Source of the DNA: Promethearchaeota archaeon Loki_b31
Lineage (GTDB): Archaea > Asgardarchaeota > Lokiarchaeia > Sigyniarchaeales > SOKP01
Direction of reading: 5' to 3'
Length of the DNA stretch: 55,265 bases
NCBI GenBank assembly: GCA_005222975.1
Contig: NJBI01000017.1
Coordinates: 1 to 55,265, forward strand
Shown here: positions 15,564 through 34,074 of the stretch, in pieces
Layout of the letters: every line of letters begins with the position of its first letter
How positions within the stretch are numbered: position 1 is the first letter of the stretch
Program-made: the position numbers and the translations under genes
The notes under the pieces: generated by a model
Told to the model about the DNA's origin: nothing
Databases searched by the model: none
What the model saw: the letters and a program-made list of their open reading frames with translations, nothing else

Positions 15564-15818
15564 TTACTTCTTCCCTTCTATCCCATAGAAGCAAAAATAA
15601 CCGCCTTCTAATTCGTATTGTGAAAATAAGTCACAACCGAAACAGTTGCAGCCATGATCTTCAACTTCTGACATTGGTTTTTGTGTTTTTCCCCGTGCGC
15701 AGAAAAGGGCGTGTGGATCAAACTCATTTAACTTGTTCGGCTTAAATGACGGGCAAGGGCCACAGAAGCGTCTACAAACATTCATAGACTCTTCTGTATC
15801 CGGTACTGGTTTTGGCAT
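15564..15818 (-). CDS. Small Cys-rich protein, DUF2769-like
   Basis: CxxCPSF, LFCARGK, GCNCFGC, YFC..G pattern. Confidence 0.65.
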   Translation of the reverse strand: MPKPVPDTEESMNVCRRFCGPCPSFKPNKLNEFDPHALFCARGKTQKPMSEVEDHGCNCFGCDLFSQYELEGGYFCFYGIEGKK

Positions 15819-26105: not shown

Positions 26106-28715
26106 TTACAGAAATCTTATTATATCACCATAAGTTTGTCTTAGCTTGTCGATTTGTTTAAGATCTCTCCAATTACAATGGGGAATATTTCTAAGACGAT
26201 AATTATTTATTTTAAATAATTTCCTTACTTGTTGCTCAAACTCGGAAATTATGAATTTTAGATAGTTATCACGTCGTATTGTATGATCAACTATGATATA
26301 AATATCGATAAATCCATTGTTTTTTAGGTTTTGTTTAAAATTATCACTAGATTTTAAATGCTGATAATCATTGACGAGAGATCCATTTCGAGGAGTTCTA
26401 TGCTTGAATCTATCAACATATTCTTCTAAAGATGAATGTTCACGATCCCAATATTCCCCTGCGACACTTAGCACTCCTATCTTTATACTAATATAAGCAA
26501 AAGCGTCAAAATGCATTCGCTTATAACTCCTTAATGTTTTATAATCGCTAGGCACTAAATTATCAACCTTATCAAAAGGAAGAATTTCATATAATGATGT
26601 TGGTTTTTCACCAAAATTTTTATGAAATAATCTTGAAAGTAAATAGCGCATTATCCGTTCGTTTGTTATTTTTCCTCCCGAACATATTTCACAAGATTTT
26701 AGATCTAAATTAAACTCATCAGGTTTAGATTTAAATCTAAAACTTGGATGATATTTACAAGACCATAGATAAACTTCTCTGGATGGCTGTTTTAATTTCT
26801 CAATATAACTCAACGGGGTTTCCAGATTAAAATTATATTTATCACCTCGAGTGATAATTTGTTCACTCGTTAATCTATGACTATCGTGATAACATTCAGC
26901 ACACCAGTTATCATAATCTTTAATGCGCTCCATACTAATATAAAATTCCCCGTGTCTGTTACAAATAAATGGGAATAATATTTCAGAGACTTTTTGCTGT
27001 TTATCACGAGATTTTTTTAACTCCTGATTTATTCGAGCTATAAATTCAGTTTCAGTAAATTTAAATCTTGCATTCCTCAACTCCGCTTCTCTAACAAAAT
27101 CCTGATATGAATGGGACTTTTTAATTCTTGAACATAGAGGGCATACAGCGCGATATAAATGTTTGTAAACTACACTAAATTTTTCATGGTTGGAACACTT
27201 ACAAGAAAGTTCAAATGATAAGTTTTCTATAAGAGTCCCTGTTAGCACAGATTCTAAATAATCAAATACATTCGTCTCCATATTAAGTCCTAAAGAATTG
27301 ATTTTACTACAATAGGAATTCCATTTCTTCACTAAGCTAAAAACACGTTTTTCAGCACATATTAATTTGTAATCGAGTATTAAATTAAAAAAAACAATAT
27401 AATTACTTGAAAACTCTTGTTTTAGATTAAAAAACCAATTATCTAAAATATTTTCATCTATTAAAGAGTTAGGTCTTTTATATTTATTAGACTTTAAAGT
27501 AGCGAAAGCTAAAACTTCAGAACCATTAGATGTACCATAAAGCATCTCGGCAATTCTATTATCTGGCAGAACTCCTTGACATGATTTAATTTGTTTTACT
27601 AGATTCTCAAGAAAACCCTTTGATATGAATTTGGTATTCTTTGCATTTGAAAAATGAATCTCAATAAATTCTTTATAATGTTCTAGAGCTATCATATCGA
27701 TTTTTTTAATTTCTCTTGGTTGCCCTTCTCTTTGTTTCATGGAATTTACGAACTCATTTTTTAATTCATTATTGAAAGATTCCCTGTATTCTTCATTAAT
27801 TTTAAGTGTTTCAAAGTTTTCAGATTTTTCGTCCATGTCTTTCTGATAATTGTTATTCATTCTCAGTAAGTTAAAAACATCAGATTTAGTAAATTTTGAA
27901 GTTAAATCTTCCTTAAAGAATTCATGATATGCGGAAAACCTGTCGAAGGCAGATACCTTTGCTTTCTTATTTCCTTTAGTTTCAGGATTTAATCCGAGAA
28001 GACAGCGACACGTACCAATGTTTAGGATTTGATCATAACTATGCTTCATCTCTTTTAACCCCATTTCACGATTGTTTTCTGACATAATTAATAACTCGTT
28101 ACTCTTCAACATGTTCTTTTGCCATTCATTCAAATATTTTTGAAGATGTTTTGAAAGTGGTTTAAGATTTTCAGGTTTAGAAAGGATTTCGGAATGAGCT
28201 CTCAGATGCTTGAGAATTCTTGTATATTGGATAGTTATTTCATCCATTCCATCCTTAATTGCTTTATTCACGAGATTTGATTTAGAATTATCTCCTTTTT
28301 TTATTGCTTTAATTTGTTTCTTGGTTAATTGCTTGAGATAAGCATTAGAAATTGTATCCATATAACGTGAAACTATGGGTACTCCCCTTCCAACTGTTAT
28401 GCAATATACCCATCCTTCTACAAATGAGGTCATTTCATCAAGGAATCTTGATTTCACGCTTTCAATTAATTCACGGGGAGGTAGTCCAGCTTTATCAAAC
28501 AAGCATGATAATGCAGCATCCACGAAATCACCGATCCTTTGATCGACATAAACTAAAGGAATGTGATGTTTTTTGCATTTAGGATACTTCCCAAAACCAA
28601 AAAATCTCAATTTAAGAGGTTTAACTCTTGTCATAAACTCACACCCGAAGTTTGGGCAGATTGCTATGCGGTCTTCTCCCACGGTTTTTCGTGACACGTT
28701 GGTGTATGCTTTCAT
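26106..28715 (-). CDS. Cassette ORF-B2: conserved head + three Zn-ribbon repeats + C-terminal PD-(D/E)XK/Vsr-like endonuclease
   Basis: Head homologous to B1/B3; CSNH..CPLC, CNRH..CAEC, CKYH..CEIC; ERIMRYLL...HFDAF...AGEYWDREH...D..KQ. Confidence 0.8.
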   Translation of the reverse strand: MKAYTNVSRKTVGEDRIAICPNFGCEFMTRVKPLKLRFFGFGKYPKCKKHHIPLVYVDQRIGDFVDAALSCLFDKAGLPPRELIESVKSRFLDEMTSFVEGWVYCITVGRGVPIVSRYMDTISNAYLKQLTKKQIKAIKKGDNSKSNLVNKAIKDGMDEITIQYTRILKHLRAHSEILSKPENLKPLSKHLQKYLNEWQKNMLKSNELLIMSENNREMGLKEMKHSYDQILNIGTCRCLLGLNPETKGNKKAKVSAFDRFSAYHEFFKEDLTSKFTKSDVFNLLRMNNNYQKDMDEKSENFETLKINEEYRESFNNELKNEFVNSMKQREGQPREIKKIDMIALEHYKEFIEIHFSNAKNTKFISKGFLENLVKQIKSCQGVLPDNRIAEMLYGTSNGSEVLAFATLKSNKYKRPNSLIDENILDNWFFNLKQEFSSNYIVFFNLILDYKLICAEKRVFSLVKKWNSYCSKINSLGLNMETNVFDYLESVLTGTLIENLSFELSCKCSNHEKFSVVYKHLYRAVCPLCSRIKKSHSYQDFVREAELRNARFKFTETEFIARINQELKKSRDKQQKVSEILFPFICNRHGEFYISMERIKDYDNWCAECYHDSHRLTSEQIITRGDKYNFNLETPLSYIEKLKQPSREVYLWSCKYHPSFRFKSKPDEFNLDLKSCEICSGGKITNERIMRYLLSRLFHKNFGEKPTSLYEILPFDKVDNLVPSDYKTLRSYKRMHFDAFAYISIKIGVLSVAGEYWDREHSSLEEYVDRFKHRTPRNGSLVNDYQHLKSSDNFKQNLKNNGFIDIYIIVDHTIRRDNYLKFIISEFEQQVRKLFKINNYRLRNIPHCNWRDLKQIDKLRQTYGDIIRFL

Positions 28716-29326
28716 GTGGTTAATCGCTCCTCGAGTTGTTTTATTGATTTTTTAATCTTATCTCTTGGCGTTGGTTCTAATAGGTTATCCAGCTCTCCTT
28801 CTAAACCATGATAGTTTATTTCAAGTTCTTTATAAAATTCGCGGAATTTTGCATATAGGCATTTTTTCACTAAACAAATGTTTTTTGCTAGCACAACAAC
28901 GAATTTAAGGAATCTTGGATGATCATGAATATTCACCTCTGAAAAAATATGAATTAAAATGGACAGTTTCTCCGTTATGGCTGATAGTTTATCAATTTGT
29001 GTTTTGTTATTTTCATAATAAAGAGATTGAATCCCCTCCTCAAGTGAATGTCCTTGTTTCTTAATTTTTTTTAACAAGGTTATAAATTCATGAGATAATG
29101 ATTCAACCTTTTGTTTTCGGGTAAGAAATTTTGTGGTTGATTTATTATCAAGTGAAATCAAGTTAGAACGAAATCGATATCTTATAACTTCAGTCTTGTA
29201 GTTAAAAAAAGTTCGGAGCTGGCGTGAAAGTTCTTTAATTTTTCTTGCGCCCTCAATTTCATACCAATCATTAAAAATTTCATCATATTCTGTTCCAAAA
29301 TCAGAATCGTCAATATAATCTGTCAT
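28712..29326 (-). CDS. Cassette ORF-A, copy 2
   Basis: Homolog of 4518..5129; ATGA overlap with ORF-B2. Confidence 0.9.
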   Translation of the reverse strand: MTDYIDDSDFGTEYDEIFNDWYEIEGARKIKELSRQLRTFFNYKTEVIRYRFRSNLISLDNKSTTKFLTRKQKVESLSHEFITLLKKIKKQGHSLEEGIQSLYYENNKTQIDKLSAITEKLSILIHIFSEVNIHDHPRFLKFVVVLAKNICLVKKCLYAKFREFYKELEINYHGLEGELDNLLEPTPRDKIKKSIKQLEERLTT

Positions 29327-29514: not shown

Positions 29515-31188
29515 TTGAAATTGGCAGTAGTATATATGAAAAAATTGGAGGAAGAACCGGAGACTTACGATTCGAAGTTTACTTCACTTACAAAAGGAAT
29601 AAATGTTAAAGTTCATAGTTGGGTATTGGATCAAATTCAATCAGATCAATCAATTTTAGAAATAGGGTCTGGGACGGGTTCATTAGCTTCAAAAATGGTT
29701 TCAAAAGGAAATATTGTTGTTGCAATTGATAATAACATTCAAATGATTAATTATGCTAAGCAGAAATACTCAGATACTTTAGAAAAAGGTACGCTATTGT
29801 ATCGATTAGGTTCATTTACGGATTTACCCGTTGAAAAGAGATCGTTAGATTTAATTGTCAGCACATTTCTATTATCAGAACTTCGCCCGTTAGAGCAACA
29901 AATATTTCTTAGAAACGCTTGGAAAGCATTAAAACCAAATAGTCGCTTGATAATAGCAGCAGAGTTTGTTCCATCAGGGTTTTGGAAGGTGGGTTTTAAA
30001 ATAAAAAGGTGGTGGTTCAAAAAAAAACTGCATCGTCTTCGTTTAAAAAGTACCTTTTTAGTTAAATGGTTTTTCAATTACATTGAACTAATAGGTTTTA
30101 AGATCGGAAACCAAAAGAAGTGGAAGCACGGTTCAATTCAAGCAATTGAATTGTTAAAAATTAACGATAACGGAGAAGATGAACCCGATTATTATCGTCC
30201 TAAAACAAAGAAGTTTAAAGGACTTATTTCGCAATTAAGAATTTATCGATGTCTTTTTACCGGACAGATAGATAGAGTTCCAATAGAACCAGGAATATAT
30301 AAATCTGGTAATCCCAATAGCAATTCTCCTATTATCGTAACGGCTAATTACGAGTATACCTACATAAAATTAATGCGCGATTTACAAAGTATTGATGCGT
30401 GGGTTTTATGTTTGGATTCTAATGGAATTAATGTATGGTGCGCTGCTCGAGGAGATGATTTTGGCAATAAACAATTACTAGAAGCCCTTGAAGCAACAGA
30501 TATTCGAGTAGTTTCCGAGAAAAAGACTTTAATTCTTCCCCAACTTTCAGCAGGAGGGGTTGCTATACCTCAATTACCAGAAAAATTTCCTTTCAAAGTA
30601 AAATACGGTCCTATTTGGTCAAAAGATTTAAAGCAATTTTTATCCGAGCGACCAGTCCGAAAACCAGATTCTATGAAACTTGCCAAATTTACTTTGTCTC
30701 ATCGTGTTCGTGCTGGAATCACGCATACTACGTTTTTATTCCGAAAAATCTTTTTAATTCCGATAATTGCAATTTTACTTTCGTTTATCATCTTGAATAA
30801 TATCGCTATCATATGGTGGCTTGGAGAATTAGTAATATGGATCATTCTCTCAAATGTAATAATATCAATCTTCTTTCCACTCTCTAAATTTACTCGCAAA
30901 TTTATTGTTAAAGCTGTATTTTTTGGATGTTTTAGCATATTTTTTATAGGGGCAATTTCTTGGATATTTCATAGTTCATATCTGTATTTACTCCTGAACT
31001 TTACAATATATTTCTGGATAACATTCTTTTCCACGATGTCTTTTAGCGGATACACGATGTCAACCAGTCCGAAAGAAATTCAAGCAGAATATCCTGTTTT
31101 TAGAAAAATAAATCTTACTCTAATAATTTTAGTCGTAATTCAATTAGGAATAAATATAATATTTTTTATGTTAAATATAATAAATTAA
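29515..31188 (+). CDS. hgcA: Class I SAM methyltransferase fused to HgcA-like corrinoid protein with TM domain
   Basis: LEIGSGTG SAM motif; EPGIY..GNP...SPIIVTANY, DSNGINVWCAARG cap helix, LILPQL, YGP, C-terminal TMs with FSGYT..TS. Confidence 0.8.
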   Translation: MKLAVVYMKKLEEEPETYDSKFTSLTKGINVKVHSWVLDQIQSDQSILEIGSGTGSLASKMVSKGNIVVAIDNNIQMINYAKQKYSDTLEKGTLLYRLGSFTDLPVEKRSLDLIVSTFLLSELRPLEQQIFLRNAWKALKPNSRLIIAAEFVPSGFWKVGFKIKRWWFKKKLHRLRLKSTFLVKWFFNYIELIGFKIGNQKKWKHGSIQAIELLKINDNGEDEPDYYRPKTKKFKGLISQLRIYRCLFTGQIDRVPIEPGIYKSGNPNSNSPIIVTANYEYTYIKLMRDLQSIDAWVLCLDSNGINVWCAARGDDFGNKQLLEALEATDIRVVSEKKTLILPQLSAGGVAIPQLPEKFPFKVKYGPIWSKDLKQFLSERPVRKPDSMKLAKFTLSHRVRAGITHTTFLFRKIFLIPIIAILLSFIILNNIAIIWWLGELVIWIILSNVIISIFFPLSKFTRKFIVKAVFFGCFSIFFIGAISWIFHSSYLYLLLNFTIYFWITFFSTMSFSGYTMSTSPKEIQAEYPVFRKINLTLIILVVIQLGINIIFFMLNIIN

Positions 31189-31218
31189 AAAAAAATTCAT
31201 AAATCTGATGAAAATAAA

Positions 31219-31548
31219 ATGACAGAATCAAATCAAAATTCATGTTGTAGTGATGGTACTGATGTGGTACAAAATATCTTAAATGTTCTTGATATTAAAA
31301 TTCTTATTAACGAACCATTATGTACTGGTTGTGGGCTATGTGGCGAAATATGCCCTATTGGTTTACCTAAACCAATTGATAATGGAATTTATGAAATAAA
31401 AAATCCAGAACTTTGTACTGAATGTAGTGCTTGTCAAAGAAACTGTCCTACTAGTGCTATTATTATGCGAGAGCATGTAGGATGCGGATGTTTGTGGGAC
31501 GCGCGACAACGAGTAAAAAGCAAAGGAAACAGTTGTAATTGCTCATAA
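31219..31548 (+). CDS. hgcB: HgcB-like 2[4Fe-4S] ferredoxin
   Basis: CTGCGLCGEICP and CTECSACQRNCP, followed by VGCGC and a Cys-rich tail; directly downstream of the hgcA-like gene. Confidence 0.75.
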   Translation: MTESNQNSCCSDGTDVVQNILNVLDIKILINEPLCTGCGLCGEICPIGLPKPIDNGIYEIKNPELCTECSACQRNCPTSAIIMREHVGCGCLWDARQRVKSKGNSCNCS

Positions 31549-31579
31549 AAACAAATCTAAAGTTCAAATTAGATTAAAT

Positions 31580-31870
31580 TTGATGAGAACTATGACGCAA
31601 CAACACGATAATAAATTAAAAGTAGATATTTACGTTCCTTTAGACGCATGTGCGTGTGTATGGGACGATTTTATTAATCGGATGTTTGAAGTGCTTAATC
31701 CCTATATAAAAAATATTGACTATAATACAAAAAACTTGAACTCCGAAGAAGCTCGCAAATTAAGACTACACGGGAATTGCGTCGTTATTGACGGAAAAAA
31801 GAAATTTAATGCTTCCTATTTACTTAAAAAAGAATTGCCAAATTTACTTAAGGAAAAAAATTTAATGTAG
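31580..31870 (+). CDS. Small thioredoxin-fold-like protein (CAC motif)
   Basis: VDIYVP...CAC ... CVVIDGK pattern. Confidence 0.5.
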   Translation: MMRTMTQQHDNKLKVDIYVPLDACACVWDDFINRMFEVLNPYIKNIDYNTKNLNSEEARKLRLHGNCVVIDGKKKFNASYLLKKELPNLLKEKNLM

Positions 31871-31893
31871 ATATTTATTTTGAAATAAATTTT

Positions 31894-32379
31894 GTGGAGG
31901 TTAAAAAAATTAAAAAAATCAATTTTGAAATAAGCATACCAACTAAGGGACTACAACAAGGAAAAAAGTACACCGTTTATGTTAAAGATAACGCTTCATT
32001 TATCGAAGCCTTAGCGATGGTTGATAAAATAGAGATGGAAACTCCTAAAGAATCTATATTCCCTATAAATGAGGGGTACATTCACAATTATCTACAACTG
32101 TTTGTAAATTTCGAAGAGAATTCTATATATGATGATGTAGGAATTTATGCTTATGGTCCTGATGAAAATGGAATTATGCGTAGATTTAACCCAATTCAAG
32201 AAAACATAGAATTTAACTTGTATGAAAATAGTGTAATCCAACTACAACCAGATGTTGGGTGTTGATGAGAAAAAGTGAAAAATAGACTTGATATCGGAAA
32301 TTTTAAGACATTTATTCGTAAAAAATACGGAAAAAATAACGAGTATTTCGCCCATTACTTTAAGAAATACGAATCTTAA
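31894..32379 (+). CDS. Hypothetical beta-grasp-like protein; candidate selenoprotein (ends at 32265 without readthrough, 32379 if both UGAs are decoded)
   Basis: ...QLQPDVGC-TGA-TGA, then 36 open codons to TAA 32377-79, immediately followed by a SECIS-like hairpin. Confidence 0.55.
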
Positions 32380-32432
32380 TTTCTTGGATGAAGTCTTTCA
32401 ATAAATGGTAGTGAAAGATGGACAATAGGAAT
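32379..32432 (+). promoter_or_regulatory. Eukaryote/Loki-type SECIS element candidate
   Basis: Helix I AUUUCU/AGGAAU, core A-UGAA/GGAC (tandem G.A), helix II GUCUUUCA/UGAAAGAU, apical loop region AUAAAUGGUAG containing AA. Confidence 0.65.
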
Positions 32433-32501
32433 GCCTCCTAATATTCTACAATAAAAACATGAAATTTATCAATAAGAACGTGAAAATAAGCTAAATTAAG
32501 A

Positions 32502-32957
32502 GTGAAGAAGGGAGATGATGTAAGTTTGAATAAAACTAAATTAATTGTTCTTTGTACGGGAAATTCAGCACGCAGTCAAATGGCAGAAGCTTTTTTAAGG
32601 AGATATGCGAGCAAGCGTTTTGACATCTATAGTGCGGGATTTGTGCCTAAAGGAGTTAACCCTTACACAATTAAAGTTATGGAGGAAATTGGCTATGATA
32701 TGAGTAGCCATTACTCAAAATCGTTAAATCAATATTTAGATAAAATACATTTTAAAATTGTAATCACAGTCTGTCAAAAAGCTGAAGAAATGTGCCCTAT
32801 CATTCCCGGTGTGGAAATTAAATTATATTGGCCTTTTGAAGACCCGGCTTCGATTGAGGGCACAGAGAAAGAAAAACTTATCAAATTCAGAGAAATTAGA
32901 GATAAAATGCGTAAACATGTTAAATCATGGTTAAAAGAAAGAGGAATTGTAAATTAA
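32502..32957 (+). CDS. arsC: Arsenate reductase, LMW-PTP type
   Basis: CTGNSARSQMAEA, ITVC, CP, WPFEDP, FREIRD. Confidence 0.9.
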   Translation: MKKGDDVSLNKTKLIVLCTGNSARSQMAEAFLRRYASKRFDIYSAGFVPKGVNPYTIKVMEEIGYDMSSHYSKSLNQYLDKIHFKIVITVCQKAEEMCPIIPGVEIKLYWPFEDPASIEGTEKEKLIKFREIRDKMRKHVKSWLKERGIVN

Positions 32958-33014
32958 TAATTTTTAAAATATGAAATTTAAAAAACTGATTTTAATTTTA
33001 TAACTTGATATTAA

Positions 33015-33971
33015 ATGGATTTCTTCTCTCATTTTTTAATTGGAATATTAATTAGCATTTTCACTCTGAATAAATTGAGTTTTAGTATTGTCTTATATGC
33101 TGGTGTGATGTCTGTTTTAGCTGACTTCGACATCATTTTAGAACCATTACAATTAATAAAAAAATCAAATCTTTTAGCACATAAAGGGATTTCACATTCT
33201 TTTTTCTACGCGGCAATTGTTACCGCGATTACAGGAAGTATATTTTCAATAATTACAGGAGAACAGTTCTTTCTAGCATGGCTAATCGGATTTTTATTTT
33301 ATAGTATGCACAATATACTCGATTTTCTTACAACCTCCAAGATTCCGCTATTTTACCCACTTTCAAAAAAAAGATATCGATTTTTTATCGATAGGGCAAT
33401 AAATATTTTCTTAGCAACAATATCTGGAAGTATTATATTATTTTACTTCACTATTTTCTTCCTCTGGCCAGAGTTATATTTTTCAAACTTGGTAAATTAT
33501 TTTTTAGGTTTTTATGTCGTGTATTTTACTTATCGAATTTTAACCAAAATATGGGTCCAATTCAGATTACCTAAAAATATGCAATACATTCCAGGTATTT
33601 TTCCTTTCACTTATTTAGTTTACGAAAATAAGAAATCAGAGGAAAATATATCATTCAAACTGATTAAAAAATTCCAATTTCGTTCGAAGAATTCTAAATT
33701 AATAGAATCTGAAATAAAAATGTTCTCTAATGAAATGAAATTGTTTGAAAAAGCAGTTTTGGTGAGCAAGAAATATTCTTTTTTTTCCAAATGGGAATTT
33801 ATTATACCGGTTATCAAGAAAGACGAAAAAAACGTCATTGTGATATTATTTTTAGCTGAAAGTTTCACATCAGGTCGTGTGTACTCTCTTAAAGTTGTAT
33901 TTGATTTAGCTAAAAATAAACTAGTTAACGAGGTCGAAAGTTTCAACTATAGAATAAAATCTAACAGCTAG
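33015..33971 (+). CDS. YdjM-like membrane-bound metal-dependent hydrolase
   Basis: MDFFSH, ADFD, HKGISHS, HNILD, LFYP. Confidence 0.75.
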   Translation: MDFFSHFLIGILISIFTLNKLSFSIVLYAGVMSVLADFDIILEPLQLIKKSNLLAHKGISHSFFYAAIVTAITGSIFSIITGEQFFLAWLIGFLFYSMHNILDFLTTSKIPLFYPLSKKRYRFFIDRAINIFLATISGSIILFYFTIFFLWPELYFSNLVNYFLGFYVVYFTYRILTKIWVQFRLPKNMQYIPGIFPFTYLVYENKKSEENISFKLIKKFQFRSKNSKLIESEIKMFSNEMKLFEKAVLVSKKYSFFSKWEFIIPVIKKDEKNVIVILFLAESFTSGRVYSLKVVFDLAKNKLVNEVESFNYRIKSNS

Positions 33972-34074
33972 TTATACGGAATAAGACTTACATTTTAGCA
34001 CGATGGCTTCAATTCGATATAAATTAACTAAATTATTCATATTATTAAATTAAAAAAAAAAAGTTAAGATTTTT

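Follow-up and report, generated by a model that had tools for sequence, protein, structure and literature searches.

A probable new selenoprotein family of Lokiarchaeia with two adjacent UGA codons and a lokiSECIS

The window analysed here is the 55,265-nucleotide contig NJBI01000017.1 (contig C46 in our numbering) of Promethearchaeota archaeon Loki_b31, whose genome assembly is 3.5 Mb long and has 31.5% G+C. Its forward strand carries a gene for a small protein that starts with GTG at 31894 and runs to ...QPDVGC, the last codon being TGT (Cys, 32260–32262), where it meets two consecutive TGA codons (32263–32265 and 32266–32268). The frame then stays open for 36 codons (EKVKNRLDIG...KKYES) up to TAA at 32377–32379, and is followed by a hairpin with a selenocysteine insertion sequence (SECIS) core of the type known from Lokiarchaeia (lokiSECIS). 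The initial annotation of this DNA had described this open reading frame (ORF), with its Gly-Cys-TGA-TGA end, 36 open codons and TAA, as a candidate new selenoprotein gene with a eukaryote-type SECIS. All of its coordinates agree with the sequence, and the proposal is supported by the invariance of the TGAs, the conservation of the extension, the covariation of the hairpin and the presence of selenocysteine (Sec) machinery in the genome. The two adjacent UGAs are thus very probably decoded as Sec-Sec. The features of the gene and its signal are as follows.

31894–32379, forward strand: full ORF of the putative selenoprotein, 161 codons plus TAA, with a beta-grasp-like domain, Cys-Sec-Sec and a helical tail (translation; full-length conservation in 63 loci; AlphaFold2 (AF2) model)
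32260–32268, forward strand: TGT-TGA-TGA, putatively read as Cys123-Sec124-Sec125 (TGA at both positions in all 63 loci)
32269–32376, forward strand: 36-codon extension, translated only if both UGAs are decoded (dN/dS; divergence by codon position; homologues continuous across the site)
32388–32423, forward strand: lokiSECIS core, consisting of AUGA, a 9-position stem, the 11-nt loop AUAAAUGGUAG and GAC (pattern scans; covariation; RNAalifold; covariance model R1)
32426–32440, forward strand: side hairpin UAGGA-AUGCC-UCCUA, 3' of the SECIS core (88% of alignment cells paired; compensatory changes at three of six pairs; centroid fold)

A word-indexed protein search returned 118 relatives of the protein, and 66 loci with 45–94% identity emerged when one genome per species was scanned; 63 of them reach the TGA-TGA site. 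The related loci belong to Promethearchaeota (Lokiarchaeia-type) metagenome-assembled genomes (MAGs), and the family is widespread and conserved, with a range of more than 60 species-level genomes. Two of the contigs, DATKTW010000027.1 (locus L065) and JAENXI010000157.1 (L077), are assigned to MAGs labelled Nanopelagicaceae bacterium and Bathyarchaeota, probably as a result of binning errors. Both codons are TGA in all 63 loci and never TAA, TAG or a Cys codon, so that no homologue ends in TAA or TAG after Gly-Cys. The Cys codon in front of the pair is variable (TGT in 59 loci, TGC in four), and the true stop of the gene differs between loci, being TAA, TAG or, in several species, TGA.

The extension behind the TGAs, kept across the homologues, has the substitution pattern of a coding sequence. 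Over 31 ungapped aligned codons after the TGAs, dN/dS is 0.13, compared to 0.20 in the 30 codons before the site. Mean pairwise divergence after the TGAs is 0.25 at first, 0.16 at second and 0.44 at third codon positions, and this order (3 > 1 > 2) matches that of the upstream coding part. By this comparison of sequences, the extension appears to be coding and under purifying selection. These data bear on the simplest alternative, in which the TGA pair is a genuine tandem stop behind a 123-residue protein and the downstream region is either a small peptide gene or a conserved non-coding RNA. Tandem stops do occur, in most database homologues the protein as called by standard software stops at Gly-Cys, and a conserved RNA structure does lie directly downstream. 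Such a reading is nevertheless scarcely credible, given the coding-like codons past the TGAs and the distant homologues with V-S or I-T at the site, which are continuous across it. In the AF2 model, moreover, the tail packs onto the domain with a predicted local distance difference test score (pLDDT) above 90. The GTG of E-K-V was considered as the start of a separate small ORF, but this codon is GTA, TTT or ATT in several species; an internal start is not conserved, and hence the tail cannot be a separate gene. Stop usage argues in the same direction. Among 1793 long ORFs of the genome, 75% end in TAA, 14% in TAG and 11% (195) in TGA, and a tandem stop would be expected to drift towards TAA, yet TGA is retained in every locus. 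Only two of the 195 TGA stops are tandem TGA-TGA, and only 9% are followed by at least 36 open codons.

Alternatively, the UGAs could be read through as Trp, Cys or Arg by near-cognate suppression, or TGA could be a sense codon in this lineage. About a dozen database entries (P0002, P0004–P0008, P0010–P0012, P0015, P0020 and P0073) are indeed called through the site as ...GC-W-W-EKVKNRLDIG..., while most others end at Gly-Cys; presumably, gene callers chose translation table 4 (TGA = Trp) on short contigs. A genome-wide TGA sense code was rejected on the grounds that TGA ends 195 of the 1793 long ORFs, and in several species this very gene truly stops at TGA. Near-cognate read-through twice in a row would be very inefficient. 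Non-Sec read-through also sits poorly with the canonical, covarying lokiSECIS 3' of the gene and with the near confinement of the family to genomes that carry SepSecS (53 of 54, see below). We consider it very unlikely.

The hairpin shows all published lokiSECIS features. Described elements combine AUGA and a 9-bp stem with an 11-nt loop that begins A-rich and closes with an invariant G, mostly after an A, and have GA or AA next to the stem on its 3' side (Mariotti et al. 2016, PMC4989117). Here, AUGA occupies 32388–32391, the stem is formed by 32392–32400 and 32412–32420 with eight standard pairs (GUCUUUCA/UGAAAGAU) and one A·G position, the loop, which ends in AG, spans 32401–32411, and GAC lies at 32421–32423. 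The element starts 8 nt past the TAA, i.e. just beyond the coding sequence, and about 125 nt past the first UGA; in 53 loci the pattern is found 113–143 nt after the first UGA. In an alignment of 54 distinct elements from the family, the UGA of AUGA is invariant and the A before it nearly so, the AAA and the final G of the loop (11 nt, 12 nt in a few) form invariant columns, and the stem is followed by GAC or AAC.

This structure is supported by covariation. The main stem and the 3' side hairpin together comprise 15 pairs. In the main stem, 95% of the alignment cells are paired and seven of nine pairs show compensatory changes; for the stem and side hairpin combined, the values are 92.5% of cells and both-sided changes at 10 of 15 pairs. 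None of 500 shuffles reached the observed pairing or covariation, and structures slid by 1–3 columns have only 45–51% of cells paired. RNAalifold predicts the same two helices, and the side hairpin is also present in the single-sequence centroid fold. The AUGA/GA core and the 8-bp helix of the initial annotation are therefore borne out, and the hairpin is conserved, but its helix I (AUUUCU/AGGAAU) is not. Helix I can be drawn in this sequence, but only 49% of its cells are paired over the 54 homologues, the level of the slid controls; the AGGA of its 3' arm pairs instead with the downstream UCCU in the covarying side hairpin. A fixed-register outer closing helix, which would make a three-way junction, was likewise not supported in this alignment, with 47% of cells paired, although individual loci such as L047 and L066 show 8-bp outer stems.

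Genome-wide, a strict pattern (ATGA, a 9-position stem with at least eight pairs, an 11–12-nt A-rich loop whose last base is G, and GA or AA after the stem) has 14 matches, compared to one in the shuffled genome. At least five of the 14 matches come after known selenoprotein genes of this organism, namely four hdrA-vhuD pairs and vhuU, and the pattern is also found after two small multi-UGA genes. A covariance model built from the whole 82-position family element (R1) finds its own locus in the genome with 83 bits, the next best match having 24 bits. As R1 matched no other family, the link between this element and those of other selenoprotein genes rests on the pattern scan.

Several other sites of this kind were also observed. 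On contig C28, a SECIS at about 15767–15802 (forward strand) follows a frame of about 87 codons that is zinc-ribbon-like (CPxC...CxxC) and contains four or five in-frame UGAs; a zinc-ribbon-like multi-UGA homologue lies directly 3' of the Cys-Sec-Sec gene at L043:2160–2420. On the reverse strand of contig C34, a lokiSECIS (reverse-strand offset 44673) lies 12 nt past the stop of a small membrane peptide that ends in ...GGIUPC.... Contig C87 carries a perfect pattern at about 31031–31066 (forward strand; 9/9 pairs, loop AAAAAUAUUAG, GAC). The 1.8 kb upstream of it offer no convincing coding frame, the sole long frame there holding 14 TGA codons, and they may conceal a very small selenoprotein gene.

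The genome encodes the machinery that Sec decoding would call for. It contains SepSecS (383 bits), a PSTK-like gene, an EFSec-like GTPase, two SelD genes, each with an in-frame TGA, and, beside SepSecS, a tRNA-Sec candidate with a UCA anticodon; the presence of such genes had been named as a check in the initial annotation. Three of them cluster on contig C59 (27894–33515), where the EFSec-like gene occupies 27894–28778 (reverse strand), the tRNA-Sec candidate about 32015–32131 and SepSecS 32358–33515. The tRNA-Sec candidate carries a 31-nt insertion in the T arm. Aragorn calls a different, intron-containing tRNA-SeC on the same contig (34501–34681, complementary strand) and, when run without introns, finds only 12 tRNAs. 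The two SelD genes are adjacent on C34 (55676–58070, reverse strand), and each has a Sec codon and a type II SECIS-like 3' structure with a UGA...AAAA(A)...UGA core, a closing stem and an extra hairpin. Of 301 genomes sampled from the phylum, 54 have a match to the family and 53 of these encode SepSecS, and there is no match in families of the phylum without SepSecS; related genomes are non-independent, so this co-occurrence is a matter of consistency and not a statistical test. Nearly all matches in the 54 genomes carry two in-frame TGAs; the exceptions are one match with three and a single weak partial match with one.

A number of observations weigh against Sec-Sec decoding. A Cys-for-Sec homologue is the classical bioinformatic criterion for a selenoprotein. 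The initial annotation had suggested looking for Cys aligned at the UGA positions, and there is no Cys codon at either position in the 63 loci, nor Cys in the 36 family representatives found among 1.84 billion proteins. The PSTK-like gene (140 bits) scores below the curated cut-off, the EFSec-like GTPase (227 bits) falls just under the bacterial SelB cut-off, and the tRNA-Sec candidate (28 bits) is under the Rfam threshold. To our knowledge, efficient decoding of two consecutive UGAs has no demonstration in archaea. The folding stability of the hairpin region is unremarkable (z = 0.26), so the case for the structure is made by covariation and not by energy. Rfam SECIS models, including SECIS_1, have no match at E ≤ 10 in the interval 30000–34000. 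This last result was to be expected since no existing archaeal, bacterial or eukaryotic SECIS-finding tool detected lokiSECIS elements (Mariotti et al., PMC4989117). With all this taken into account, a Sec-Sec selenoprotein under lokiSECIS control, with a function suggested by its context, is in our judgement the probable explanation of the locus as a whole.

Distant relatives help to define the core of the motif. A profile search of 1.84 billion representative proteins yielded only 36 family proteins. Two of its members have V-S or I-T at the site, with an uninterrupted frame and no Sec. A distant subfamily reads C-W-W in the database, and its DNA is TGA-TGA; another form reads A-W-G-W-W, and the DNA of a relative is TGA-GGG-TGA-TGA, i.e. 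U-G-U-U. The three-Sec subfamily is represented by L091:727–760 (G183:C101), where the in-frame stop is apparently the UGA within the AUGA of the SECIS. Some loci contain a tandem paralogue with His-Ala-Asp-Sec-Sec-Ala, in which Asp replaces Cys (L049:4474–4960, L065:4447–4940 and L085:1884–2370). In these tandem arrangements a SECIS is found after the second gene only, and one SECIS probably serves four UGAs in two genes. Because Cys is replaced in the paralogue and in the variant forms while U-U stays, the U-U pair and not the Cys is the constant core.

The AF2 model of the protein, calculated with a 29-row alignment, has a pLDDT of 87 and a predicted template modelling score of 0.86. It consists of a five-stranded sheet and one long helix, followed by the C-U-U loop (pLDDT of about 69) and confidently predicted tail helices. 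Fold searches return beta-grasp domains only: the transcobalamin beta domain (Z 7.4), SAMP1 (7.2), CysO (6.9) and MoaD (6.1), with root-mean-square deviations of about 3 Å over 81–92 residues and Foldseek template modelling (TM) scores of 0.25–0.35, in the Z range of common arrangements. Pfam and NCBIfam assign the protein to no family, with or without the tail. We read the predicted fold as beta-grasp-like, in agreement with the initial annotation and at modest Z, and not as that of a member of the matched families. The C-U-U motif is located where sulfur carriers bear their Gly-Gly tail, right after the last strand. Here there is no C-terminal Gly-Gly: D-V-G-C-U-U follows the last strand and the chain runs 36 residues further.

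The gene is part of an operon-like, forward-strand series in the order CpaM/HgcA-like fusion, HgcB-like, orf96, selenoprotein gene, ArsC-like and YdjM-like. Synteny was counted over 62 loci, and the neighbours are listed here with their frequencies.

29515–31188, forward strand: fusion of a CpaM-like S-adenosylmethionine methyltransferase, an HgcA-like corrinoid domain (NVWCAARG) and a membrane tail (Pfam, NCBIfam, translation; 30 loci)
31219–31548, forward strand: HgcB-like ferredoxin with two [4Fe-4S] motifs and a Cys-rich C-terminus (30 loci)
31580–31870, forward strand: orf96, a thioredoxin-fold protein with an invariant CxC (50 loci)
32502–32957, forward strand: ArsC-like low-molecular-weight phosphatase of the thioredoxin-coupled arsenate reductase type (131 bits, cut-off 174; 12 loci)
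33015–33971, forward strand: YdjM-like membrane metal-dependent hydrolase (30 loci)

The most constant neighbour is orf96, mostly directly upstream of the selenoprotein gene. It has no Pfam or NCBIfam family; its AF2 model (pLDDT 84) matches thioredoxins and glutaredoxins with TM scores of 0.5–0.66, and its C24 and C26, the CxC at the start of helix 1, are invariant. HgcA is the corrinoid protein of mercury methylation; the HgcA-like part of the fusion scores 172 bits against the HgcA cut-off of 275, and its N-terminal domain 137 bits against the CpaM cut-off of 180. The cap-helix motif N(V/I)WCA(A/G)GK is replaced by NVWCAARG. Judged by its sequence, the product is HgcA-like and not established as HgcA. 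In NCBIfam, HgcAB-like fusions have CpaM as a separate partner; in the present locus it is CpaM that is fused, and HgcB stands alone. The initial annotation had spoken of an hgc/ars operon. HgcAB-like/CpaM and ArsC-like neighbours are present, but their scores are under the HgcA, HgcB and ArsC equivalog cut-offs, and "hgc/ars-like" is the accurate wording.

Gene neighbourhood and the thioredoxin fold of orf96 both suggest chemistry with thiols or metals. In the mechanism that we propose, of which the decoding step is backed by the sequence comparisons and the function is inferred, the ribosome would read the UGA pair at 32263–32268 as Sec, directed by the Lokiarchaeia-type SECIS 3' of the true stop, to give a 161-residue product in which the last strand of a beta-grasp-like domain leads into an exposed Gly-Cys-Sec-Sec and a helical tail of about 36 residues packs back. 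The selenolate pair, with or without the Cys, would then bind or relay a soft metal or metalloid, or form a diselenide for two-electron redox chemistry. The protein may work with the adjacent CxC protein orf96 and, in about half of the genomes, may serve the HgcAB-like/CpaM corrinoid methyltransferase as a trans-acting counterpart of the CU motif of bacterial HgcA. A role as a metal(loid) carrier, which the initial annotation had also put forward, is plausible, though on balance less likely than not. Two points count against it: half of the loci have no HgcAB-like genes, and the fold matches are middling (Z of at most 7.4). A more specific version, somewhat speculative, is that an Asgard corrinoid methyltransferase system (HgcAB-like plus CpaM) uses the C-U-U protein as the arm that presents its substrate: Hg(II), As(III) or selenium or tellurium species would be held on a selenolate claw and handed to methyl-corrinoid, with the CxC partner resetting it.

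A genuine Sec-Sec selenoprotein could also be a pure redox relay, in which a diselenide or selenenylsulfide on the tail cycles with orf96 and no metal(loid) is carried; electrons might in this way reach, for instance, ArsC-type reductases or the corrinoid enzyme. Thioredoxin reductase has a known redox centre in its Cys-Sec tail. The constancy of orf96, with its thioredoxin fold and invariant CxC, and the thioredoxin-coupled type of ArsC, adjacent in 12 loci, speak for such a relay, which is possible though on balance doubtful. On the other hand, among enzymatic neighbours the HgcAB-like/CpaM cluster is the commonest, the CU and CC motifs of HgcA, HgcB and MerA-type proteins are read as metal ligands, and Asp replaces the Cys before U-U in the tandem paralogue. 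That replacement means that a Cys-Sec selenenylsulfide is not universal in the family, whereas a Sec-Sec diselenide would still be possible. The redox relay is thus a serious rival to the carrier role, and the present data separate neither from the other.

The decoding system is the known Lokiarchaeia one. It was described for PrxL, VhuU and HdrA-VhuD (Mariotti et al. 2016, PMC4989117), and its element has also been named Asgard eSECIS-like type I (Huang et al. 2024, PMC11227280). The gene described here shares with those genes the signal just past the stop (AUGA, 9-bp stem, 11-nt A-rich loop ending in G, GA(C)), the Sec machinery, the occurrence of several Sec per gene and the use of one SECIS for tandem genes, as in hdrA-vhuD. 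It differs in that its protein family is unlisted, its Sec codons are directly adjacent and no Cys homologues were found.

The protein family, in contrast to the decoding system, appears to be new. It is not among the seven Asgard selenoprotein families (Huang et al. 2024, PMC11227280) or the 11 archaeal selenoprotein families of a 2026 review, and a full-text literature search returned no description of it. The absence of Cys-containing or previously known relatives explains why the homology-based surveys (2016, 2024 and the 2026 review) missed it. Its unusual traits are the adjacent UGAs, the lack of any Cys homologue found, the predicted beta-grasp-like fold and the linkage to an HgcAB-like system. 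For consecutive Sec residues, the literature search returned only the GUGUU motif of algal PDI_e (Jiang et al. 2020, PMC7539508) and no archaeal case. Both proteins would have Sec-Sec from adjacent UGAs, and the U-G-U-U subfamily (L091) even shares the motif core with GUGUU. PDI_e, however, is a eukaryotic thioredoxin-fold protein disulfide isomerase without sequence or fold relation to the family described here.

Two further comparisons concern function. A CU motif is found in most bacterial HgcA proteins and Sec in some HgcB, and these residues have been interpreted as ligands of heavy metals (Haft and Gwadz, bioRxiv 10.1101/2022.07.06.499078); PMC13188914 also lists these bacterial selenoproteins, HgcA and HgcB, together with the SAO system, which has CU motifs. 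The common element is a Cys-Sec on a flexible segment in a corrinoid-dependent organometallic system, and the gene in the window adjoins an HgcA-like/HgcB-like pair. Unlike in bacterial HgcA, the putative C-U-U resides on a separate beta-grasp-like protein and not on HgcA, the host is an archaeon, the SECIS lies past the stop and not within the coding sequence, and the HgcA-like protein, which scores under the HgcA cut-off, is joined to a CpaM-like methyltransferase. The beta-grasp carriers MoaD, ThiS, CysO and SAMP1 and the transcobalamin beta domain resemble the predicted fold at modest Z, and the carriers likewise have their reactive residues after the last strand, but here the C-terminal Gly-Gly is missing, the chain continues into a helical tail and there is no detectable sequence similarity.

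The finding would enlarge the archaeal selenoproteome by a widespread, conserved family, whose genes are cut at Gly-Cys or mistranslated as W-W in current annotations. An adjacent UGA pair is kept under selection in archaea, and it would be decoded as Sec-Sec by an Asgard machinery that resembles the eukaryotic one. Selenium would also be tied to Asgard HgcAB-like corrinoid systems, the substrate question of which becomes approachable through a small, soluble, expressible partner. If the C-U-U protein is indeed the substrate-presenting arm of these systems, the absence of a Cys version would mean that their chemistry strictly needs selenium, and the ratio of the full-length protein to the truncated, Gly-Cys-ended one would be a built-in sensor of selenium supply.

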